From: Candidatus Hodarchaeota archaeon
Lineage (GTDB): Archaea; Asgardarchaeota; Heimdallarchaeia; Hodarchaeales; Hodarchaeaceae
Direction of reading: 5' to 3'
NCBI GenBank assembly: GCA_048886525.1
Contig: JBHLKP010000014.1
Coordinates: forward strand, 9,460-29,459
Length of the DNA: 20,000 nt
A program made the translations under genes and the position numbers. Below, piece by piece: positions 2,315-19,122 of the stretch. The notes below the pieces were generated by a model, which worked only from the letters and a program-made list of their open reading frames with translations, had not been told where the DNA came from and searched no databases. Within the stretch, counting starts at the first letter, position 1. Each line of letters begins with the position of its first letter.

Positions 2315-3346
2315 TTGTCAAAAACTATTGAAAAAGATACTGAATGGGATTTTTTCCGAACTCTGAAATCGAAGAAACTACAATGCTTAGCATGTCCCAG
2401 ATTCTGCCAACTTTCGGATAATGAGATTGGTTGGTGTGGTGCACGTGAAAACCAGGATGGTAGAATCATACCTCGTACTTATGGGTTGATTTCATCTCTA
2501 GCAATCGATCCCATCGAAAAAAAGCCTTTATATCATTTCCTTCCTGGAACAGGTATTTTATCAATAGGGTCTCATGGATGCAATCTAGGCTGCATACATT
2601 GTCAAAATCATTCAATTTCCATGGATCGCTCTATTTCATCTTTAAGAAGGATGACACCAGAGGAGCTTGTAGAAGCTGCACGTTCTAAAGGACTTCTATC
2701 AATTGCATCAACTTATAATGAGCCACTAATTGCTTTTGAATACGTTAGAGATATTGCAAATCTTGCCCATCAAAATAATATTAAAATGGTCGTTGTTGAT
2801 AATGGATATATAACAGAAAAGCTAGCTAGAATGATTGGAAGCTTACTTGATGGCGCCAATATAGATATCAAGGGATTTTCAAAAGAATTCTACAGAGAAA
2901 TATGTGATGCAAGAGGTTGGAAATCAATCTTAAGAACATGTGAGATTTTTTACCAGAAGGGTGTCCATTTGGAAATAACTAATCTTATAATCCCCACGAA
3001 GAATGATTCCATGGATATGATAAAAGATTTGTGTATTTGGATTCATGATAACCTTGATGCCAATATACCTTTACATTTCTCTCGATTCCATCCAGATCAC
3101 AAATTACTACATTTACCTCCCACACCACTTAAAACATTGGAATCAGCTTATGATATTGCGAAAAATGTTGGATTAAACCATGTATATATAGGTAATATAC
3201 GATCTCAGAAAGGGAATGATACTTATTGTCAGAAATGCAATAGTCTATTAATACAACGAAACGGATATTACACTAAAACCAAAAATATTCAAAATGGAAA
3301 ATGTAAAACTTGTCAAACTCCTATATATGGAGTTTTTTCTGATTGA
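2315..3346 (+). CDS. amrS: AmmeMemoRadiSam-system-type radical SAM enzyme
   Basis: LQCLACPRFCQLSDNEIGWCGARENQDGRI N-terminal cysteine module, radical SAM motif GCNLGCIHCQNHSIS, and a C-terminal CxxC...CxxC segment. TTG start with GAGGTGG about 10 nt upstream. Confidence 0.85.
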   Translation: MSKTIEKDTEWDFFRTLKSKKLQCLACPRFCQLSDNEIGWCGARENQDGRIIPRTYGLISSLAIDPIEKKPLYHFLPGTGILSIGSHGCNLGCIHCQNHSISMDRSISSLRRMTPEELVEAARSKGLLSIASTYNEPLIAFEYVRDIANLAHQNNIKMVVVDNGYITEKLARMIGSLLDGANIDIKGFSKEFYREICDARGWKSILRTCEIFYQKGVHLEITNLIIPTKNDSMDMIKDLCIWIHDNLDANIPLHFSRFHPDHKLLHLPPTPLKTLESAYDIAKNVGLNHVYIGNIRSQKGNDTYCQKCNSLLIQRNGYYTKTKNIQNGKCKTCQTPIYGVFSD

Positions 3347-3353
3347 GTTTAAT

Positions 3354-3833
3354 TTATGAACGCTTTTTCGATATACGAAACGGAATTTCTACAATCTTAC
3401 CTTTAAATAAGCTAAATATTCTTAGTTCTGGAAATTCTTCTACTCCTGCGATCATCCATATATATGGATATGGCCAAAAGTTCATATAATAGCGATCTTT
3501 CTCCGAAGGATAAATAGATGCTTTTTCAGGATGAGTATGAAAAAATCCAAGTAATCTAGCCCCCTTTTTTTCATGGATTTCAATTTCTTTTAACAAAATC
3601 TCATAATCGAGAGAAAAACTATACATTGAGTTATCTAAATTATCCATTAGTATAAAATTTCTCATTTGGATAATAGTTCCATCTTGGGTTCCAAATCCAA
3701 GTCCAACACTTTCAATCATTGAGGATTCGGCTGTTGTTTTTAGTATTTGTTTATATATACTAGAGTGCAGTAAGAGCATTAGTTCAGGATTATTATTGGA
3801 TCTAGATGTTTGGAAACCCAATTTATTAGCCAC
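3354..3833 (-). CDS. JAMM/MPN (JAB1-like) metalloprotease family protein
   Basis: GFFHTHPEKASIYPSEKD resembles the JAMM motif H-x-H...S-x-x-D, preceded by a MPN-like beta-rich region. Confidence 0.75.
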   Translation of the reverse strand: MANKLGFQTSRSNNNPELMLLLHSSIYKQILKTTAESSMIESVGLGFGTQDGTIIQMRNFILMDNLDNSMYSFSLDYEILLKEIEIHEKKGARLLGFFHTHPEKASIYPSEKDRYYMNFWPYPYIWMIAGVEEFPELRIFSLFKGKIVEIPFRISKKRS

Positions 3834-3864
3834 AATTTACCTTTAATTAAGTTTAAACATCAAT

Positions 3865-5334
3865 TTAAGGATATTGAGGTATTATATCATTCGATGTTAG
3901 TATTTCTGTATCATATCCGATTTTACTAATTAAACGAGCAAAATTCTCTTGAGCTTCTGGTTCTCCGTGAAGACTGTAGATTTTGGATGGTGATGAATAT
4001 CTTACTAATTGAATAAGTCCATCTAGAGATGAATGACCCGAGAATGGAAATTTTTTTACCTCTAAAGAAAGTGATATATCGTAGATCTGTCCAAATCCGT
4101 TATCTAAAGATAAATTAGTTTCACCAGTAATTATATCGTGCCCAGTTGTTCCTTCGACTTGATAACCGACTATATATAATCCATTTAGTGGATCATTTCC
4201 ACTATATCTAAGATAATCATAAACAGGTCCACCCTCAAGCATTCCAGAAGTAGTTATTATTATACTTGCTTTGTCTTGGGAACCTAGTTTCTCCCGTTTT
4301 TTTACTCGTTTCCCTGAAACTGGAACATCATCAATAGTTCTTATCCATTCATGTTCAAAAGGAGATCCTAAGCCCTTATCTTCTAATTCAATAAGCATCC
4401 GTGTAGAAATCCATTTTTCATTCATATAATTCCTATAAACCGCATTCATATCGAGGATCATTCCATCGGTATAGAGAGGATACTTTCTTAAGAAAGAGTC
4501 AAAATCAGAAACCAAGTATGCTTGAACCTCTTGCGCCCTTCCTAGGGCAAAAGATGGAATAATTGCTTTTCCTCCTCTTGAATAGCATTTTAACAGTGTT
4601 TTTGTTAAATCGGATTTAATCGTTTTTCGATTGTCCAATTTCTTATTAGCATTTGTTGTTTCAGTCAATAGCACATCAATAGGCTCATCTGGGTCAGGAT
4701 AAATCATGGGATCGTGATATGGAGTCTTAGCATCATTAAAGTCTCCAGTATAAAAGATTCGTGTTCCATCCCAATCAAGGAGAATCGCAGCACTTCCAAG
4801 AATGTGACTAGCATTGTTGAATTCAGCAGTGATGCCATTAGTGACTTTAAATTTCTGATAATAATTATGTAAACGAACCTTATCAAGAGCGGTGTGAAGA
4901 TGGGATATACCGTAATGGTGAGGCCCTTCGATTTTTAAATGATCTTTCCATAGAATCCTTACTATATCTTTCGTTGGAGTGGTCATATGAACTAGTCCGT
5001 CATATCCAGCCCTGTAGAGAGCTGGTATATATGCGGAATGATCTATATGAGCATGTGAAAGCAAAACAGAATCTACTTCGGCTATATATTTATCTATTCC
5101 TTCAGGGGGAGTAGAAAGTAGTCCTGTTTTCCTCGGATGTAGCTGTATACCTGCATCAAGTACGATTCGTCTATCTTTATCAGAAATCATAATACACGAT
5201 TTACCCACCGAGTCAGAGGCACCGAAAACTGAAATTTCTAACATTTTTTGAAACACTTGTCCATAGTTCGGAAGAATCAGCTTAATTGAGGTTAGAAGAG
5301 AAAGGAGATTTGTAGTTTTTCGTTCAGAATTCAA
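3865..5334 (-). CDS. Beta-CASP metallo-beta-lactamase RNase (archaeal CPSF/RNase J superfamily, no KH domains); internal ATG at 5244 (MLEISVFGASDSVGKSC) is the more likely start
   Basis: SHAHIDHSAYIPALY, HILGSAAI, YTGDFND, IIPSFALGRAQEV, IITTSGMLEGGP, FPFSGHSSLDGL and YSLHGE motifs. Confidence 0.85.
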   Translation of the reverse strand: MNSERKTTNLLSLLTSIKLILPNYGQVFQKMLEISVFGASDSVGKSCIMISDKDRRIVLDAGIQLHPRKTGLLSTPPEGIDKYIAEVDSVLLSHAHIDHSAYIPALYRAGYDGLVHMTTPTKDIVRILWKDHLKIEGPHHYGISHLHTALDKVRLHNYYQKFKVTNGITAEFNNASHILGSAAILLDWDGTRIFYTGDFNDAKTPYHDPMIYPDPDEPIDVLLTETTNANKKLDNRKTIKSDLTKTLLKCYSRGGKAIIPSFALGRAQEVQAYLVSDFDSFLRKYPLYTDGMILDMNAVYRNYMNEKWISTRMLIELEDKGLGSPFEHEWIRTIDDVPVSGKRVKKREKLGSQDKASIIITTSGMLEGGPVYDYLRYSGNDPLNGLYIVGYQVEGTTGHDIITGETNLSLDNGFGQIYDISLSLEVKKFPFSGHSSLDGLIQLVRYSSPSKIYSLHGEPEAQENFARLISKIGYDTEILTSNDIIPQYP

Positions 5335-6159: not shown

Positions 6160-6306
6160 AATTTTTGTCATAGACTCGTAAGAAAGTCAAATAACTCGAT
6201 TTTTTCTTTAATTTTCTTTGAAATTCAGTCCAAAAATTCTTATTAGAGTTTGACAAGATTTCTGGGATTAGCGGATATGCCCGCATTTTCTCCATAAAGT
6301 TACGAT

Positions 6307-6380
6307 GGGCCGGTGATCTAGCTCGGTATGATGCCAGTCTCACACACTGGATGTCGATGGTTCAAATCCGTCCCGGCCCA
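6307..6380 (+). tRNA. tRNA-Val (anticodon CAC), intronless, CCA not encoded
   Basis: Acceptor GGGCCGG/CCGGCCC (7 bp). D arm ATCTAGCTCGGTATGAT. Anticodon stem CCAGT/ACTGG with loop CTCACAC (anticodon CAC at 6341-6343). T arm GATGG-TTCAAAT-CCGTC. A73, then a T-run. Confidence 0.95.
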
Positions 6381-6434
6381 TTTTTATAACATTGAAAATC
6401 ATGTTAGATTACGATCTTGAAAGGGTGATAAATA

Positions 6435-7436: not shown

Positions 7437-9635
7437 TTAACTATCTTCAAAGGCGTCGAGGATGTAAGTATAGATTTCTTTCTCGGTTCCGTGTGAAATT
7501 TGTTGTAATCTTCTTACTATTAATTCTGGAGTAGACTTTGCATATTTGTAGTATATTGGTGTTCGATTCACAATTAATTCCAAGTTCTCTGAAAGCCCTT
7601 GTGCTTCTATTCCATCTATTCGAATTTTTTCTTTAGCATATTTAGCAATTAATTGTGCCAGATGAGTCACAAACAAACCTACAGATTGCGGTGATTTCCC
7701 TAGCAGATCTAAAAAGGCTGCTATTACTCGAGCAGACGCCCCTGGTTCAGAAATACTTTCCATTTCATCCGCCAAGACTAATCGTGAGTTGGGACTGAGT
7801 ATCATCTGCGATAAAACACGTAATGTGCTTTCAAAGGCACCAGCATCCATATGCCCAGAAGATTTTCGATAATAATGAAGTTCCTCAAAACCACTAAGAA
7901 CAGCACGTTTACATGGTATTGGTAAACCCATTTGTCCTAGAATCACCATTATTGCCATGGATACTATTAATGTAGTTTTCCCTCCGCTATTAGCCCCTGA
8001 TAGAAGAATTATCCGTTCTCCATTAACTATTCCATTGATTTTACCAATTTCTCCAATTGCATATGTTACTGGATCTACCTGGATATTGCTTCTATGTTGT
8101 TCCCTCAGAAGAAATAAGTTTCGGGATTCTTCAACGATTAATCCCGTACCCTGATCTACAACAAGTTGGGGAATAATTAAATGATATTTCCCAGTGAATT
8201 TACCTATCATAAATAAATAATCTAACTCTAACATGCAATTAAGAGCGTTTTTAGCTAAGGATTCGAATTGGTTTAGAGATTTTGCTAACCCTACTTTTAA
8301 CTCAAAGGATTTCATCGCTCTTCGCTGACGCAAATATACTTTTACTCTTTCAGACACCTCCTCGACTGGATCTACTGGATAGCGAAGTTCCCTTGGAAAA
8401 ATACCAGAAATATAATCGGTTTCATCACTCTGTAGATTTAATTCATTAATTAAACGATCCTCGGCCTTAGTAATAATCTCTTCTACAACTAAATACAGTT
8501 CTTCGTCTAAATATTCACGTAATTCGGTTTTACCTCCATCTTTTGGATAAGGATGATCTTCTGTAGCCAAATCCTTTAACAATGCGAGGATTTTCTCACC
8601 TCCCAATTCAACAGTTGTTTCTTGAAATTTATTTTCTAATTCCTCATTCAAAGTCAATAGAATTTCAGCCAATTTTGTCTCAAAAATGCTCTCAGCTCTG
8701 AAAAGTCGTGAATATTCTTCATTTAAATTTTGATTTGGTTCTCCTGATTCATTTAGATTAATAAGTTCATTTCCCATTTTTACAAGCATATCTAGACTTA
8801 AATCACCTATAAAAGCTTCTAATTCCGAAGATGGAAGAGTTTGAAGCAGCTTGGCCAATCCTGATATTGACTCCAGAATTTTCTTATTTTGGGCAAAGAA
8901 ACTCAGAGTTTTCTCAGGTATTATTTGAAGTAGATTCTTACGTTGATTTTCTGGTAATACTACAACATTGGGAAATCCTTCATCAAGCATAATATCTGAG
9001 CCAATCCAAATAACCTCATCGTATCCACTAAAGATCTCCGATATTTGTTCCAAATTCTCAATATAAAGGATTTCAGAGTATCTATTAACTTCAGTTGAGC
9101 TAAGTTCTCCATATATTTCCTTATCAGCAGTTGCAATGACCCTAGACGCAGTATCAAGTTGAGTAATCTGATTTTTTAATGGTGAAAGGTTTCTAAATAG
9201 ATTATTGTAATCATTAAAAGAATGTGGAGATTTTTTGATTAACGAACTTAATCGATAACCGAGTCTTGAGGTTTGTTGACGATCTCTTATTTTTTCTATA
9301 GCGGAGAACGGTAATGGAAAGAATAAATACAATTTTGATCTGGAATACATTGTATTAGCAAATTTAGATATAATATCAATGGTTCGATTGTAGATCAGAA
9401 TAGCATCCTCAGTTTTCAAAAAATTTTGAATTTTTTCCCCAGTTTCTTGAAAATGTAAATTTCGACACAAATTCAGCGCAAATCGTTCACCTATCCCTTC
9501 CACTGAAGAAATTTCGGCAATCCGGGACTCTCTTAGGGCTGTTAACACCGCGTTTTCGCTCCCAAATGCTGATTTCAGTTTTTCTTCAACTGAAGGGCCT
9601 ATTCCACGTATTTCACGAAGATTGTTGACGATCAA
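7437..9635 (-). CDS. MutS-family ATPase with N-terminal helix-hairpin-helix region
   Basis: LREIRGIGPSVEEKL and ISSVEGIGERFALNL (HhH). C-terminal MutS ATPase with Walker A GANSGGKTTL, LVLADEMESISEPG and FVTHL. No Smr domain. Confidence 0.85.
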   Translation of the reverse strand: MIVNNLREIRGIGPSVEEKLKSAFGSENAVLTALRESRIAEISSVEGIGERFALNLCRNLHFQETGEKIQNFLKTEDAILIYNRTIDIISKFANTMYSRSKLYLFFPLPFSAIEKIRDRQQTSRLGYRLSSLIKKSPHSFNDYNNLFRNLSPLKNQITQLDTASRVIATADKEIYGELSSTEVNRYSEILYIENLEQISEIFSGYDEVIWIGSDIMLDEGFPNVVVLPENQRKNLLQIIPEKTLSFFAQNKKILESISGLAKLLQTLPSSELEAFIGDLSLDMLVKMGNELINLNESGEPNQNLNEEYSRLFRAESIFETKLAEILLTLNEELENKFQETTVELGGEKILALLKDLATEDHPYPKDGGKTELREYLDEELYLVVEEIITKAEDRLINELNLQSDETDYISGIFPRELRYPVDPVEEVSERVKVYLRQRRAMKSFELKVGLAKSLNQFESLAKNALNCMLELDYLFMIGKFTGKYHLIIPQLVVDQGTGLIVEESRNLFLLREQHRSNIQVDPVTYAIGEIGKINGIVNGERIILLSGANSGGKTTLIVSMAIMVILGQMGLPIPCKRAVLSGFEELHYYRKSSGHMDAGAFESTLRVLSQMILSPNSRLVLADEMESISEPGASARVIAAFLDLLGKSPQSVGLFVTHLAQLIAKYAKEKIRIDGIEAQGLSENLELIVNRTPIYYKYAKSTPELIVRRLQQISHGTEKEIYTYILDAFEDS

Positions 9636-9715: not shown

Positions 9716-10627
9716 TTAGATTTTAGTAACTTTCTGTGCTGAAGTTAATTCTACGAACTTATTAACTTCGGAGTACGAACAATGGTCTGAGTACGGAAAG
9801 AAATGAACATCCATTCGTTTTTGTTTTATTTGTAATGCCCAACCAGTAGGAGAAATTCGTAATGCATCAGAAACTTTAGATTCTACAAGATTATCAATTC
9901 CATGAAGGTTCTCAACCATCCTTCGGCTTCCTACAAAGACGCCTGAATCAGCATTATTTGTAAAAAAATCCCATTCTCCTCCGATTTCTTTATAGATTTC
10001 CACTTTGTATTTTGGTGCCCAAATCTTTATTTTTAAGGCTTCACTTACAGTTTTTAAAAGTAATTCTTTCCCTATTTGATATGCAGCAATCCATACATCC
10101 CTTTCAGGATAATTGTTATTAGAGAGAATCAATGTAATTATTTCTGAAATTAATACCTGTCTTTCTGGAAACTGAAATTTTGGATTCCTTCCATATGTAT
10201 AATCTAGCCAAATATGATCAGCGTCTTTAATTAAGTCAATTTCATCCATAATTGGTGATCCGAGCCTAAAGTCTCCTGTATATACTTCTTTTAAGCCCCC
10301 TTCAGACTCGATAACGAACATTAGACTTCCCAGGCAATGATTAGCGTCTAAAGCATGTACTATATAAGAATCAAAATCTAATGACTGATTTGGTTTAATA
10401 ATTAGACACTTCTCTTTAGGAACCCCATGGAGAACTTTAATGACTGCAAAAGTTTCCTTAGAACACACAATTGTCGAATCAGGATCCGATAAGCTCAATT
10501 TTATACCTAACATGTGATCATTATGACCATGGGAGAGAAAAAAGTAGTTTGAAGATGGTTTACGATGATCTCTCCGTCTAAATGGAAACTCATCGAAGTA
10601 GCTTTTGGCAATCGAAGAGTAAACCAT
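9716..10627 (-). CDS. SNM1/Pso2/Artemis-like beta-CASP metallo-beta-lactamase nuclease
   Basis: LSHGHNDHMLG, ANHCLGSLMFVIE, VYTGDFRLG, WLDYTYG, WIAAYQIGKELLLKTVSEAL, ISPTGWAL and FFPYSDHCSYSEVNKFVELTSAQKV follow the SNM1-family motif order. Confidence 0.8.
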   Translation of the reverse strand: MVYSSIAKSYFDEFPFRRRDHRKPSSNYFFLSHGHNDHMLGIKLSLSDPDSTIVCSKETFAVIKVLHGVPKEKCLIIKPNQSLDFDSYIVHALDANHCLGSLMFVIESEGGLKEVYTGDFRLGSPIMDEIDLIKDADHIWLDYTYGRNPKFQFPERQVLISEIITLILSNNNYPERDVWIAAYQIGKELLLKTVSEALKIKIWAPKYKVEIYKEIGGEWDFFTNNADSGVFVGSRRMVENLHGIDNLVESKVSDALRISPTGWALQIKQKRMDVHFFPYSDHCSYSEVNKFVELTSAQKVTKI

Positions 10628-10819
10628 AAAATAACCTCAAAAATTTAAGTTTATTTGCTTTATATCAGTCTCAGTAAAATTCCGTCTTCTATCTTTAAAA
10701 AAGTTCCTTTCGGGATTTAAGGTGGTTAAAACTTACTAGGTACTTTTTTTAAAAAATTAATTAATGCTTTTAGCAATCAAAACATAGAAAAGAATCTTAT
10801 TGCGAATGATGTTCTTGGG

Positions 10820-10961
10820 GATTCTGTTTCCGGGTTCGGAACGAGACCGGGTGTAACTCAGGCCCTTTGGCCGGGCAATACCCAAGCTTTCCAATGTTCC
10901 CGTAGGCGCGAGCACAACAGTACAGATCAGAACGGAGCCTAACTTAACTTTCGGCAGAATC
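10820..10961 (-). rRNA. Circularly permuted 5S rRNA gene (permuted core 10950->10830, 121 nt; terminal stem 10961-10955/10826-10820)
   Basis: Minus strand reads GATTCTGCCGA|AAGTTAAG|TTAGGCTC|CG|TTCTGAT|CTGTA|CTGTTGTGC(TCGC)GCCTACGG|GAAC|ATTGGAA|AGCTTGGG(TATTG)CCCGG|CCAAA|GGGCCTGA|GTTACAC|CCGG|TCTCGTTCCGAAC|CCGG|AAA|CAGAATC. It contains the 5S loop B (AAGUUAAG), loop E/helix V and loop C (CUCGUUCCGAAC) signatures, but with the 3' half before the 5' half. Confidence 0.85.
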
Positions 10962-11023
10962 TCGCAAGATTTAACGCAACAGATTATTAGTGTTATTAGA
11001 CACCAATAGAAGCAAAATTAAAA

Positions 11024-11040
11024 GTCTTTATATACTTTTT
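11024..11040 (-). promoter_or_regulatory. Archaeal BRE/TATA promoter for the permuted 5S RNA
   Basis: Minus strand AAAAAGTATATAAAGAC. TATA centre at about 11030 would place the start site around 11003-11008, upstream of the RNA core. Confidence 0.65.
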
Positions 11041-11143: not shown

Positions 11144-11968
11144 TTGGGTTTCAGTATGCTTTGGTCAGATTGGAAGAATTCTTACAATGAAATTGTTAAG
11201 GAATTAGGGCTCGATGCTAAAGCTGACGAAAAAACATCAAACTTATTAGACGAATTTTTTATTAAACTCAATTCTGATAAGAAAAAATATATTCAACAAC
11301 GATTAAATCAGGTTTTTCAAAAACCAGTAATTATTTTTGGGGCTGGCCCTTCCTTAGATCGGGATTTTAGTAACATATTAACATTAAATATAAACTCAAG
11401 ACTACAATTAGTCTCTATAAATGGCGCTACAACATTATTTCAATTGAAAAAGGTTATTCCATCTGTTGTGATATCTGATCTTGATGGTGATTTGTCCACG
11501 ATCAAGTGGGCAATAGAAAATGGTGCTTTAACCCTTATTCATGCCCATGGAGATAATCATGATCTCATCTATGAATTTTTAAAAGAACATCATGAAATCA
11601 TTTCAAGATTTGATGTTTGGGGGACAACACAATGCAAACCGAGAGATTCATTATTAAATTTTGGTGGGTTTACCGATGGAGACAGGGCTATTTTCATTGC
11701 ATTTCACTTCCAATCTCCTTTGATTGGTTTAGCTGGTTTTGATTTTGGAACCAAAATAGGACATTATAGTTTCGTAAACTCTTCTGTGCACAAAAATAAT
11801 GAATTAAAAATAAGAAAATTTGAAATTGCCTTAAATTTGATCGCAAGGTTCCATTCATTTCATAAAGGGCTTCGGTTCAATCTAACAACTCAAGGAAATG
11901 CCATACCAGGTTTTCCTAAATCAAATTTTCATACTTTTCTTGACCAATTGGCTGAATACTACAAGTAG
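11144..11968 (+). CDS. mptE: MptE-like 6-hydroxymethyl-7,8-dihydropterin pyrophosphokinase (ATG 11156 is an alternative start)
   Basis: VIIFGAGPSLDRDF, VVISDLDGDL, LIHAHGDNHDLI, WGTTQCKP, GGFTDGDRA and LAGFDFG motifs of the archaeal DUF115/MptE family. Confidence 0.8.
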   Translation: MGFSMLWSDWKNSYNEIVKELGLDAKADEKTSNLLDEFFIKLNSDKKKYIQQRLNQVFQKPVIIFGAGPSLDRDFSNILTLNINSRLQLVSINGATTLFQLKKVIPSVVISDLDGDLSTIKWAIENGALTLIHAHGDNHDLIYEFLKEHHEIISRFDVWGTTQCKPRDSLLNFGGFTDGDRAIFIAFHFQSPLIGLAGFDFGTKIGHYSFVNSSVHKNNELKIRKFEIALNLIARFHSFHKGLRFNLTTQGNAIPGFPKSNFHTFLDQLAEYYK

Positions 11969-16512: not shown

Positions 16513-19122
16513 TTAGTCAACAGAAAAAACCTCTTCTATCACCATAATGTCATCTATAAAAACATCAAGATCGCCCAACCACATTGGAAGGATTTTTTCG
16601 TGTTTTTTCTCAAAATTTGTTAAGAAGCTTGAAAGCTTTTTTCGAAGCTCTGTTGATGTTGTATCTGCAAATATTGCAGCAAACACATACTTTGCGTATT
16701 CTATTGTTAGAACTACATCGCCATGATCGATTGTTTTCAATAATTGTTCACTCCTTACAGCTTCTTTAGCAAATGATGTGATAGCTGAAAAAAGACCAGC
16801 AACTAGAGCTGGTTCGACTTGTGATTCTGCAGCAAAAGTATGAGATAAAACAGCTCTTCCATCTAACATCATAATATGTAAAGAATCGATTGTGACTTCC
16901 TTAAATGAGTAGGAAAATTCTTTGTGAAGAATGGTTAAAACTTGCTTGAGAGGAACTTCCAAATCAAATGTTAGTTCATCTAATATCTCTTGGATTTGAG
17001 TTACTTTTAATCCAGTTTCACGGTTTAATTCTACCAAAGACTTTTCTTTTCCAGAGATTGCCTCATAAAGGTTAGATCCATTTCCAATGTTTTGCAGTTT
17101 TTCATCAATTTGCATTTTCAATGTAGCATCTGTAATACGAGGTGCACCAATCATAATTATATCAGCTTTTTTTAGCATTTCGTTTTTAGAGGGTAGTTGA
17201 GAGACTTCTGAAAAGATAGACTTGTATTGGGTTTTTCCTTCTCCAGATTGAGTTTTCACACGAAATTTTCGTCTAGCTAAGAAAAACATGGCTCCATATG
17301 TCATTAATATTGCTAATGGATGAAAAATATTATAGGGAATTGATAGATACCCCAGAAATTGTCCCCCAGTTCCTTTCCATATTACTTCTATTTGAATCAG
17401 TTGAGGAATTATAAACTGAAACTGATTAAAAGTGCCTTCTTTCCACACTGAAGACAGCCATGTTGACGTTACTCCTGTTCCCGTAAAGCCAGCAAAAAGA
17501 TTTGCTACCACTGTAATAAATGGGGCAATTAAACCAGTATAATTATAATGAGGAAAAGGATCAAATTCAGAAAATCCTAGTAGAATATACCATTTTTCTT
17601 TGTAGTAGGTGAAAATAAGAAGACTAACCAAAAACATTGTAACGTATACAATAACTGTTGTCCCAATCAGACTCCAATTCCATCTTCGGATGAATAAGAT
17701 CAAAGCAGCACAAAGAAGAAAACTAGCGAAATTTTGTGTTAACCAGAAGAATGTCCTATAATGAACAGTTTCTAAATATCTCCACATACCCAGCATAAAT
17801 ACACGATAGGTTAGAAAACCAAAGGCAAGTAAAAAGCCGAAAATTACGCCTATTAATGCTGATTTGGCTGTATTCATAAGATCTATACGCTTAAGTGATA
17901 TCTTTAGATTTTTAAAAGTTCCAATAAGTTTTAATAGCAAATAAACAGAAAAAGGTTCAAAAATATCAAGGTACATGACGAAAAAGACTGATACCATTAT
18001 AAAATATACAACAAAATATGAAATTACGAAAATTTGATCAGAGTATTGAACTAAGAACAGGATAACAGCTAATCCTGACATAAATGCTCCTACAGTCGAT
18101 AAACTTTGAACCATGGCAATATATAATTGATTTCCTAAAAATTTTCCTTTTAACGATAATTGACTCGCTTTAATAAGGTATACAGAGAAGACTATTGTTG
18201 CTATATATGCAAAGAAAATTTCTAAAAACCAACCCATTGTTGTCCCTTGCAATAAGCTAGGATTTTCAGTCTCTCCGAGTAGTTGAAGAATGGTCATAAG
18301 AAGAAATAGTGTAATGGGTAAAATTGCGATCAGTACTTTTAGTAGTTCTCGTTCATTTTCCCAATTTTTCGCTTTTACTCGTGTTATAATTTCTTGAAAT
18401 GGTGATACTTCCATCTCAAATTGTATCCCTTGAAGTCTCTGAGTTACTCCTCGTACCTCATTTAACTGTCTTTTTAAATCCTTAGTATCTCTTTCTAAAT
18501 CGTTAATATCATGAGTTTTATCTTGGGATGTTTCTTTCATTTGTTTTTGGAGTCTTTTAATCTCATCTTGATTATGTTTAATTAATCGCTTGATAGGCTT
18601 TCTGTCATTCCTTTTCGCACCCCAAGTTTGGTATAGCAAAATTCCCATTGATAAAAATGGTGAAATCCCAAAGACAAATCCTAAAACAATAATCGGATAG
18701 TTCAGGTAATTTACTATAGAAATAATGAAATGTTGTATTAAATACCGTATAATTATTGGTACTCCAGGAATTGTTGCATTATCAGGACTAGCTGTAGTAT
18801 CCCATTCAGTGCTGAATTGGTAGCCCTTGTAGCCAGGTACAGGATAATATTCTTGACTCAGATATTGTTGGGGATTTGGTACTAATGAATTTAAAATAGA
18901 AGGAAACACAAAATAACCAATATAGAAAATGATAAAACCTATATAGAAGCGATTGAAGATGATTGCTATGAGATTTTCGTCTTTTCTACGAGTAAAAAGG
19001 TAAGGGAAAAAGAAAATTATAAGAGGTAAGAAAGTTACAATAATGGAGAATAAAATATTTGTTGGATCGTCAAATAATGCCATTTCTTTCCATCCTGCTT
19101 CATCTAATCGAATATAAACCAA
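16513..19122 (-). CDS. Large multi-pass membrane protein with cytosolic coiled coil and C-terminal longin/roadblock-like domain (ATG 19083 is an alternative start)
   Basis: About a dozen hydrophobic segments and a coiled coil (KQMKETSQDKTHDINDLERDTKDLKRQLNEVRG). The soluble C-terminus (LHIMMLDGRAVLSHTF...EPALVAGLFSAITSFAKEAV...) resembles a segment of the convergent HerA-like protein. Confidence 0.65.
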   Translation of the reverse strand: MVYIRLDEAGWKEMALFDDPTNILFSIIVTFLPLIIFFFPYLFTRRKDENLIAIIFNRFYIGFIIFYIGYFVFPSILNSLVPNPQQYLSQEYYPVPGYKGYQFSTEWDTTASPDNATIPGVPIIIRYLIQHFIISIVNYLNYPIIVLGFVFGISPFLSMGILLYQTWGAKRNDRKPIKRLIKHNQDEIKRLQKQMKETSQDKTHDINDLERDTKDLKRQLNEVRGVTQRLQGIQFEMEVSPFQEIITRVKAKNWENERELLKVLIAILPITLFLLMTILQLLGETENPSLLQGTTMGWFLEIFFAYIATIVFSVYLIKASQLSLKGKFLGNQLYIAMVQSLSTVGAFMSGLAVILFLVQYSDQIFVISYFVVYFIMVSVFFVMYLDIFEPFSVYLLLKLIGTFKNLKISLKRIDLMNTAKSALIGVIFGFLLAFGFLTYRVFMLGMWRYLETVHYRTFFWLTQNFASFLLCAALILFIRRWNWSLIGTTVIVYVTMFLVSLLIFTYYKEKWYILLGFSEFDPFPHYNYTGLIAPFITVVANLFAGFTGTGVTSTWLSSVWKEGTFNQFQFIIPQLIQIEVIWKGTGGQFLGYLSIPYNIFHPLAILMTYGAMFFLARRKFRVKTQSGEGKTQYKSIFSEVSQLPSKNEMLKKADIIMIGAPRITDATLKMQIDEKLQNIGNGSNLYEAISGKEKSLVELNRETGLKVTQIQEILDELTFDLEVPLKQVLTILHKEFSYSFKEVTIDSLHIMMLDGRAVLSHTFAAESQVEPALVAGLFSAITSFAKEAVRSEQLLKTIDHGDVVLTIEYAKYVFAAIFADTTSTELRKKLSSFLTNFEKKHEKILPMWLGDLDVFIDDIMVIEEVFSVD

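Follow-up and report, generated by a model that had tools for sequence, protein, structure and literature searches.

The stretch of DNA analysed here, 20,000 nucleotides (nt) of contig JBHLKP010000014.1 from a Candidatus Hodarchaeota archaeon and referred to as the window in the following, carries a circularly permuted gene for 5S ribosomal RNA (rRNA), and we are highly confident that this is a functional 5S rRNA gene of its host. The organism belongs to the Hodarchaeales, the Asgard order usually placed nearest to eukaryotes. The gene lies on the minus strand, in a spacer of 516 nt between the genes for a DRMBL metallo-β-lactamase (9716–10627) and an MptE-like protein (11144–11968). The latter protein shows 100% identity to an NCBI entry labelled ‘Candidatus Hodarchaeota archaeon’, and the relatives nearest to it bear the labels Hodarchaeales, Hodarchaeota or Heimdallarchaeota. 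This spacer stands out by its G+C content of 0.49, compared with about 0.26–0.40, and is the highest point in the 3 kb profiled around it; the other neighbours are ordinary housekeeping genes, coding for MutS-like, PTPS, thioredoxin-reductase-like and HerA-like proteins. Read on the minus strand, positions 10948 to 10828 form a complete 5S rRNA of 121 nt, in which the γ domain comes first, followed by a capped helix I and the β domain. Its parts are the following:

10828–10948, minus strand: the entire permuted 5S body, 121 nt, delimited by rotated-model score, covariation and the Rfam match to helix III and loop C
10948–10934, minus strand: 3′ side of loop B and 3′ strand of helix II
10931–10927 with 10894–10890, minus strand: helix IV
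10926–10895, minus strand: loop E-like region and helix V
10869–10887, minus strand: capping hairpin of helix I, GC-UUGGG-UAUUG-CCCGG-CC, recognized by covariation
between the capping hairpin and the 5′ strand of helix II in body order, minus strand: loop A
10865–10858, minus strand: 5′ strand of helix II
10850–10830, minus strand: helix III and loop C

Once permutation is allowed for, all elements of a 5S rRNA are present, i.e. helices I–V, the loop A three-way junction, loop C, the loop E-like region and the bulged U in helix V. The capping hairpin connects the segments that are the 3′ and 5′ ends in conventional 5S rRNA; across lineages, its loop measures 3–5 nt and its stem 5–6 base pairs (bp). 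An initial annotation of the window had proposed just such a permuted archaeal 5S rRNA, in which a short loop joins the native ends and the molecule is opened anew between helix III and loop B, and the elements that it named are found where it had placed them on the minus strand: AAGTTAAG at 10950–10943, TTAGGCTC at 10942–10935 and GGGCCTGA at 10865–10858, together with the helix V hairpin (10920–10900), the hairpin TTGGG-TATTG-CCCGG (10885–10871) and the helix III/loop C segment ending at 10830. Its further statement that neither half is duplicated holds for the halves at large, but not for the 6-nt motif CCGRAA, which is present at both ends, as CCGAAA in the leader (10954–10949) and as CCGGAA at the end of the body (10833–10828). 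It also overlooked a helix between leader and trailer, formed by GAGATTCTG (10963–10955) and CAGAATCCC (10826–10818).

The permuted order is borne out by two covariance models, which were built from the identical set of 14 Rfam-verified canonical archaeal 5S rRNAs and include no Hodarchaeal sequence. In the first (R1), the sequences are rotated at GGAA|G and their native ends linked by GAAA, while the second (R2) retains the native order; the canonical genes came from a scan of GTDB genomes for the loop C motif CCGGTCTCRTTCCGAACCCGGAA and scored 63–103 bits when checked with Rfam. The rotated model R1 aligns over its full length (model positions 1–125 of 125) to 10948–10828 of the minus strand with 80.2 bits and an E-value of 4e-18 to 5e-19, and with filters off this is its sole significant match in the window, whereas R2 yields just two separate half matches of 31.4 and 20.8 bits. 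For held-out canonical 5S controls, the result is reversed, with 90–125 bits for R2 and 38–57 bits for R1, so the test discriminates both ways. A comparison of rotated and unrotated scores had been suggested at the outset; carried out by rotating the model instead of the sequence, it comes out far better for the rotated order, at 80 against 31 bits. The relatives described below score 80–99 bits with R1, and a damaged variant among them (L137) 59.7 bits.

The general 5S rRNA model of Rfam, RF00001, reaches its gathering score of 38 bits nowhere in the window or in 15 related loci. In E-value mode, it matches 10852–10828 with model positions 27–51 only, corresponding to helix III and loop C, at 19.6 bits; a score below the gathering threshold is expected, because the gene is permuted. 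No Rfam family other than RF00001 matches the region at E-values up to 10, and this includes the family of permuted mitochondrial 5S rRNAs, mtPerm-5S. The helix III/loop C motif CCGGTCTCRTTCCGAACCCGGAA (23 nt) is itself widespread: it occurs exactly in many Actinomycetota and in diverse archaeal 5S genes (Nitrososphaerota, Thermoplasmata, Woesearchaeota and Bathyarchaeia; loci L008–L127, among the matches listed). Those matches listed are mostly Actinomycetota and unrelated archaeal 5S genes, and one of them is a Hodarchaeota contig (L109).

To what extent this arrangement is shared becomes apparent from related loci, of which syntenic ones were reached via homologues of the MptE-like protein and further ones via a lineage-specific DNA pattern (L002–L007, L109, L128–L136 and L138–L142, on contigs from JGI, ENA, NCBI and Logan). 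About 18 further assemblies, under the labels Hodarchaeota, Hodarchaeales or Heimdallarchaeota, contain the same permuted gene in the same DRMBL/MptE spacer; these come from several projects and comprise three megabase records with CP accessions (CP070665.1, CP070760.1 and CP070695.1). Across lineages, the 121-nt body is 83.5–100% identical, compared with 42–79% for the adjoining MptE-like proteins, and 30 of its 42 variable columns fall in helices. Judging from these values, the locus is under strong purifying selection. When 14 distinct sequences are aligned and evaluated for the 5S fold plus the outer helix, 95.8% of the pair cells are paired and 12 pairs display double-sided changes (helix II, two; helix IV, three; helix V, one; capping hairpin, three; leader-trailer helix, three). 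None of 500 shuffled alignments reaches these pairing and covariation values, and slid controls are paired in 28–52%. The capping hairpin is paired in 98.8% of its cells, with GC/AU covariation at columns 84/92 and 85/91 and GC/GU/AU at 79/96. Directly observed are therefore that the gene is permuted, that it is conserved, that its helices covary and that leader and trailer share a helix.

An alternative view would be that the locus is a rearranged relic, a pseudogene or an assembly artefact, and that a working conventional 5S gene resides elsewhere in the genome. It could appeal to the extent of the examined DNA, which is 20 kb of the source genome and about 100 kb of related loci, and to damaged variants such as the deletion in L137 and the 37-nt duplication in L006. 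We consider it very improbable, given the same order in the roughly 18 other assemblies from several projects, the three megabase records among them, a sequence conservation far exceeding that of the neighbouring proteins, compensatory changes that preserve every 5S helix, and the conservation of a promoter-like element and a terminator-like tract. Moreover, no 5S gene was predicted in closed Heimdallarchaeum genomes (Wu et al., 2022). The shared order, the conservation and the compensatory changes together exclude misassembly and pseudogene for practical purposes. Of the objections that the initial annotation had raised against its own proposal, a misassembled contig is thereby excluded, and a canonical copy beside a degenerate locus was not seen in the DNA covered.

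As regards such a copy, a conventional 5S gene was found neither in the window nor in the related loci, which amount to about 100 kb, and the pattern AAGTTAAGTYAGGYTCCGTTYYG, which is able to match a canonical as well as a permuted copy of this lineage's 5S rRNA, retrieved permuted copies only. Published annotations show a corresponding pattern. Wu et al. (2022), who used RNAmmer, could not predict 5S rRNA genes in their Asgard genomes, the closed Heimdallarchaeum genomes included, and for the type metagenome-assembled genome (MAG) of Ca. Hodarchaeum mangrovi, only a 23S gene is listed; for Ca. Kariarchaeum, Borrarchaeum and Jordarchaeum, 5S genes are listed. This distribution is in line with a permutation that is specific to the clade and makes standard tools overlook the gene. 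In five of the related loci, public records instead contain open reading frames (ORFs) called across the unannotated 5S gene (L006 4662–4904, L138 301–678, L139 1561–1938, L141 1–249 and L142 2–184); they are hypothetical, 60–125 amino acids long and without a Pfam match on record, and are probably spurious.

Several loci show peculiarities of their own. In L006, the 3′ end of the 5S gene and the trailer are part of a 37-nt tandem duplication, with CCGGTCTCATTCCGAACCCGGAAACAATATCCCCTGG in two copies (about 4575–4648, minus strand); it is absent from L007, which has an identical MptE-like protein and stems from another sample, and may be a real polymorphism or an assembly artefact. In L137 (about 2740–2870, minus strand), the TATA box region is joined straight to GTACTG, and the leader and the first 27 or so nucleotides of the body are gone; L138 and L139, with the same MptE-like protein, have an intact gene. 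A divergent lineage, represented by L140 (2662–2810, plus strand) and L141 (1–135, plus strand), has an MptE-like protein 48% identical to that of the window and carries the permuted 5S gene inverted relative to its neighbours. In L003, two IS605 OrfB/TnpB-like (Cas12f-like) genes (3127–4368 and 8369–9529) flank the block of DRMBL, 5S, MptE, PTPS and thioredoxin-reductase-like genes. Further away, a tRNA-Val(CAC) gene (window 6306–6381, plus strand; L002 1155–1228; L004 1040–1113) is syntenic upstream of a block comprising the luciferase-like, MutS-like, DRMBL and 5S genes. The window also encodes a β-CASP/RMMBL metallo-β-lactamase ribonuclease, aCPSF-like, about 5.5 kb from the 5S gene (3865–5334, minus strand), and an ORF of 869 amino acids without a Pfam match (16513–19122, minus strand), in whose position L003, L004 and L006 have a gene for 786–882 amino acids.

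The 5S body is embedded in what appears to be a transcription unit of its own, with a leader of about 55 nt and a trailer of about 35–50 nt. The following elements were recognized in the window:

11027–11034, minus strand: TATA-box-like element TATATAAA, read from the sequence
10985–11008, minus strand: hairpin at the 5′ end of the leader, UAUUGGUGU with ACACUAAUA, 9 bp, predicted by cofolding
10964–10984, minus strand: leader strand of the distal processing stem, AUCUGUUGCG (10984–10975) and UCUUG (10969–10965), predicted by cofolding
10955–10963, minus strand: leader strand of helix h, GAGAUUCUG, 9 bp, pairing with 10826–10818
10949–10954, minus strand: leader CCGA, proposed to form a central helix H, and AA, the proposed 5′ cleavage region, from invariance and pairing
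10818–10827, minus strand: third A of the trailer AAA bulge (10827) and trailer strand of helix h, CAGAAUCCC (10826–10818), from alignment and cofolding
10794–10817, minus strand: trailer strand of the distal processing stem, CAAGA (10817–10813), CGCAAU (10804–10799) and AGAU (10797–10794), from cofolding and compensatory changes
10778–10794, minus strand: T-rich tract TTCTTTTCT...GTTTTG, a probable archaeal terminator, read from the sequence

TATA-like motifs related to that of the window (TATATAAAG, ATATTTAAAG and TTTTTAAAG) occur at matching positions in those relatives for which enough upstream sequence is available, and with the usual archaeal spacing between TATA box and start site, transcription would begin at about position 11004. 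Likewise, where the downstream sequence of the relatives reaches far enough, an oligo-T run comes after the trailer, and the T-rich tract probably acts as a transcription terminator. The permuted 5S gene would accordingly have its own promoter and terminator and constitute a single transcription unit. Between these, cofolding pairs leader and trailer into a long, irregular processing stem: for 13 of 14 lineages, the prediction contains helix h, the AAA bulge and the pairing CCG(G):C(C)GG, together with more distal helices. Helix h has nine pairs, of which three show covariation (U-A to C-G, U-A to A-U and C-G to U-A), and 90.5% of the cells are paired in the 14 sequences. The distal helix is compensatory between lineages as well, with TTGCG/CGCAA in the window, GCGCC/GGCGC in L004 and GCGCT/AGCGC in L006. 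The hairpin at the 5′ end of the leader has lineage-specific equivalents in relatives; in L128, L134 and L135, the far 3′ trailer contains the complement of an analogous leader segment (GGUUUGUAAUCUC...), and the stem then reaches nearly to the ends of the transcript.

The innermost part of this stem resembles the bulge-helix-bulge (BHB) motif. In tRNA introns, each strand of this motif proceeds from a helix via the 4-bp central helix H and a 3-nt bulge to another helix, and the bulge at the 3′ splice site adjoins the anticodon stem, closed by the A-I pair of position 32 with intron position −3. The 5S junction has the same strand order: its leader reads h-CCGR-AA|G, followed by UU, and its trailer AAC-CCGG-AA|A-h. 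Here, the palindromic CCGG tetramers are able to form the central 4-bp helix H, in which the leader CCGR can pair with the trailer-side CCGG at 10833–10830, and GUU:AAC are able to form a short inner helix h′. In all 14 sequences, the segment between h and the body is CCGRAA in the leader, with CCG and AA invariant and A or G as the fourth base, and AAA in the trailer; no changes occur in leader UGCCG.AAG and trailer CCCGGAAACA, unlike in the variable remainder of helix h. By sequence logic, symmetric cuts at 0, 1 or 2 nt past H, followed by ligation, would all yield the canonical CCCGGAAGUUAAG (CCCGGAA-GUUAAG), so the conclusion is independent of the exact cleavage position. The restored CCCGGAA-GUUAAG is identical to canonical archaeal 5S rRNA and to the Rfam consensus CggAAguUAAG, and the k-mer predicted for the ligation junction, CCGAACCCGGAAGTTAAGT[TC]AGG, is not found in the DNA.

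A BHB with the strand order helix-bulge-H-helix was also considered and rejected, as it needs a leader bulge inside GAGAUUCUG, where there is none. In the distal stem of L003, no BHB was seen, just an irregular helix with internal loops. ARAGORN reports no intron-containing tRNAs in the related loci; by hand, a tRNA of L071 fits the BHB geometry of tRNA introns with three of four H pairs, and the introns of L019 and L015 are non-canonical. Judged by whether a 4-bp helix has at least one 3-nt bulge beside it, the 5S junction as modelled would correspond to a BHB in the relaxed definition quoted by Plagens et al. (PMC4731332), not to the strict hBHBh′ form.

Overall, we regard a BHB-processed, circularized RNA as the best explanation for the permuted 5S gene, and as a fairly probable one. 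The gene would be transcribed solo from its TATA-box promoter into a precursor of about 210–230 nt that ends at the oligo-T tract. In this precursor, leader and trailer would form the processing stem, the innermost 9-bp helix h of which adjoins the relaxed BHB. The tRNA-splicing endonuclease EndA would then cut both strands symmetrically past H, and RtcB would ligate the ends to a covalently closed 5S rRNA of 121 nt, which would have its helix I capped and its loop B restored to the canonical CCCGGAA-GUUAAG and would enter the ribosome. Helix III has its 3′ strand engaged by the leader CCGR and would be free to fold once the latter is removed. Cleavage by EndA, ligation by RtcB, a circle as the final form and its place in the ribosome are what we infer. 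The two enzymes are found in all archaeal genomes surveyed (PMC12918454). Asgard archaea produce circular 16S and 23S transcripts, and mature ribosomes contain circular 23S rRNA; 5S rRNA is not known to be circularized by EndA and RtcB, according to the literature on archaeal rRNA circularization (PMC12918454).

For BHB-type cleavage and circularization as such, we lean slightly to the affirmative; a number of points weigh against it. The fourth pair of H is A·C in 10 of the 14 sequences, that of the window included, and G-C in four; the bulge on the leader side shrinks to 2 nt if G10948 pairs with C10834; and the inner helix h′ has 3 bp only. The columns of H and h′ are invariant, and covariation speaks neither for nor against them. 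In nearest-neighbour energies, the BHB conformer, which competes with helix III, is 0.7–5.2 kcal/mol less stable than the native fold with h, and in full-length minimum free energy (MFE) folds, it is the 5′ strand of helix III that takes up the leader CCG(G), as in neither the native fold nor the BHB conformer. On a more general level, the search for a canonical copy covers the window and the roughly 100 kb of related loci, and a divergent copy may exist elsewhere.

The imperfection of the BHB-like motif also speaks for the main and serious rival of circularization, a functional permuted 5S rRNA that stays linear. Leader and trailer would here be trimmed to helix h or its vicinity, and h would persist as a terminal stem that projects from loop B and holds the new ends together. 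Helix h, being well backed by covariation, could serve as such a permanent closing stem, the region of loop B and helix III tolerates expansion segments (PMC7812874), and the 5S rRNAs of brown-algal mitochondria are permuted in their final form (PMC4267664). Yet with a linear product, loop B would retain a helix and seven additional nucleotides. Nor does this reading account for leader CCGRAA and trailer AAA, whose sequence and length stay constant although h varies, for the mirrored strands, on which symmetric cuts restore the canonical sequence, or for the further 20–30 nt by which both arms of the stem are extended, in the manner of the processing stems of archaeal rRNA. We therefore deem it rather unlikely.

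A second variant accepts the circle, but as an intermediate that is reopened in the loop of helix I to give a linear molecule of conventional order. It has precedents in permuted tRNA genes, the products of which pass through a circle that is opened at the mature ends (PMC4267664, PMC3218864), and in the 23S rRNA of Pyrococcus furiosus, which is circularized and then reopened elsewhere, at helix 98 (PMC7758197). In the Hodarchaeales gene, however, the capped helix I has 5–6 bp and a loop of 3–5 nt, compared with 9 bp in the canonical helix, and opening this loop would leave a very weak terminal helix. Nor does the loop contain a visible processing signal, be it a tRNA-like element, a BHB or a flanking spacer, and it is too short for an excised spacer. 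This makes reopening improbable, and we retain the closed circle as the preferred end product.

The divergent lineage with the inverted gene has a further feature of interest. Its 5S rRNA contains, at the conserved helix III bulge, an insertion of 30 nt, AGATATGAAGGAATATCTTCATTCCGGGAA, which repeats CATTCCG of the core. In L140, the insert can fold into a BHB-like structure that lies within 1.1 kcal/mol of the MFE and comprises H = UCCG:CGGG, an 8-bp hairpin and the bulges AAA and AAC, and symmetric cuts would restore CAUUCCGAA-CCCGG. The helix III bulge is also the commonest and least obstructed site for expansion segments in prokaryotic 5S rRNAs (Stepanov and Fox, 2021, PMC7812874). Known expansion segments, however, lack complementarity to the core (PMC7812874), whereas the L140 insert repeats CAUUCCG and has a BHB-like fold. 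Owing to this repeat, and to a fold whose symmetric cuts restore the canonical sequence, the insert in L140 and L141 may be a BHB intron; otherwise, it may be an expansion segment at the most common site. The combined proposal, in which Hodarchaeales ribosomes harbour a closed circular 5S rRNA made by EndA and RtcB from a permuted gene and in which a BHB intron is spliced from helix III in L140 and L141, is a tentative one, to which we assign a little less than an even chance.

In the literature searched, about 8 million open-access papers and preprints including bioRxiv, neither a permuted nor a circular 5S rRNA was found to be described for archaea in general or Asgard archaea in particular. 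The closest analogue by mechanism is the signal recognition particle (SRP) RNA of Thermoproteus, and the closest by molecule is the permuted mitochondrial 5S rRNA of stramenopiles. In Thermoproteus tenax and T. uzoniensis (Plagens et al., 2015, eLife, PMC4731332), the SRP RNA is likewise a universal, structured non-coding RNA of archaea that is encoded with its 3′ part upstream of its 5′ part in one unit. There, too, standard searches missed a canonical gene, and the new ends lie beside a functionally important loop; leader and trailer form a (relaxed) BHB at the junction, to which the motif proposed for the 5S gene is comparable. Whereas circularization of the SRP RNA by the splicing endonuclease at this BHB has been demonstrated (PMC4731332), that of the Hodarchaeales 5S rRNA is proposed from the sequence. 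The latter also concerns another RNA in another phylum (Asgard Hodarchaeales as against Thermoproteales), has an A·C in the central helix of most lineages, and its motif competes with a native helix.

Permuted tRNA genes, as known from Cyanidioschyzon merolae (Soma et al., 2007) and Thermofilum pendens (Chan et al., 2011, PMC3218864), share the swapped halves and have what is proposed for the 5S gene, a leader-trailer BHB and a route via EndA and ligation to a circle. This circle is reopened at the acceptor ends, whereas the linker in the Hodarchaeales 5S rRNA is a hairpin loop of 3–5 nt without a visible reopening signal. The mitochondrial 5S rRNAs of brown algae and other stramenopiles (Valach et al., 2014, PMC4267664; mtPerm-5S) likewise have a closed hairpin for helix I and their ends elsewhere. 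In these molecules, only the α domain is rearranged, the ends are located at the α/γ junction of an open three-way junction, the order β-then-γ is kept, the product is linear and a processing-stem logic is absent (PMC4267664). The Hodarchaeales gene, by contrast, is broken on the 3′ side of loop B within the β domain, has the order γ-α-β and is flanked by a BHB-like processing stem; the mtPerm-5S arrangement, with a 5′ hairpin as α domain, α/γ ends and β before γ, does not apply to it. Finally, circularization of archaeal 16S and 23S pre-rRNA (PMC12918454), and that behind the permuted 23S rRNA of P. furiosus (PMC7758197), proceed as proposed for the 5S precursor, via a BHB in a processing stem, EndA cleavage and ligation by RtcB, and the circle can be the ribosomal form. 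The 16S and 23S genes are, however, collinear with the mature RNA and do not need circularization for the order of their domains, unlike the Hodarchaeales 5S gene.

The permuted gene appears to solve a gap stated by Wu et al. (2022), in whose Asgard genomes 5S rRNA was not predictable. Standard tools, RF00001 in our case and RNAmmer in theirs, miss it, and as a consequence, MAGs of this clade fail the 5S criterion for ‘high-quality’ genomes and probably spurious ORFs are called over the locus. The gene further represents a natural counterpart of engineered circularly permuted 5S rRNAs, and it extends permutation at the gene level, which in archaea was previously seen in tRNA and SRP RNA, to an rRNA. 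The permuted 5S gene is also a likely synapomorphy of a lineage on which models of eukaryogenesis centre. Our analysis suggests that 5S rRNA, thought to be exempt from circularization by EndA and RtcB, would depend on that pathway in this clade. If the circular product and the intron of L140 and L141 both hold true, the Hodarchaeales would possess the first circular 5S rRNA, the first archaeal rRNA gene permuted at the DNA level and the first intron in a 5S rRNA.

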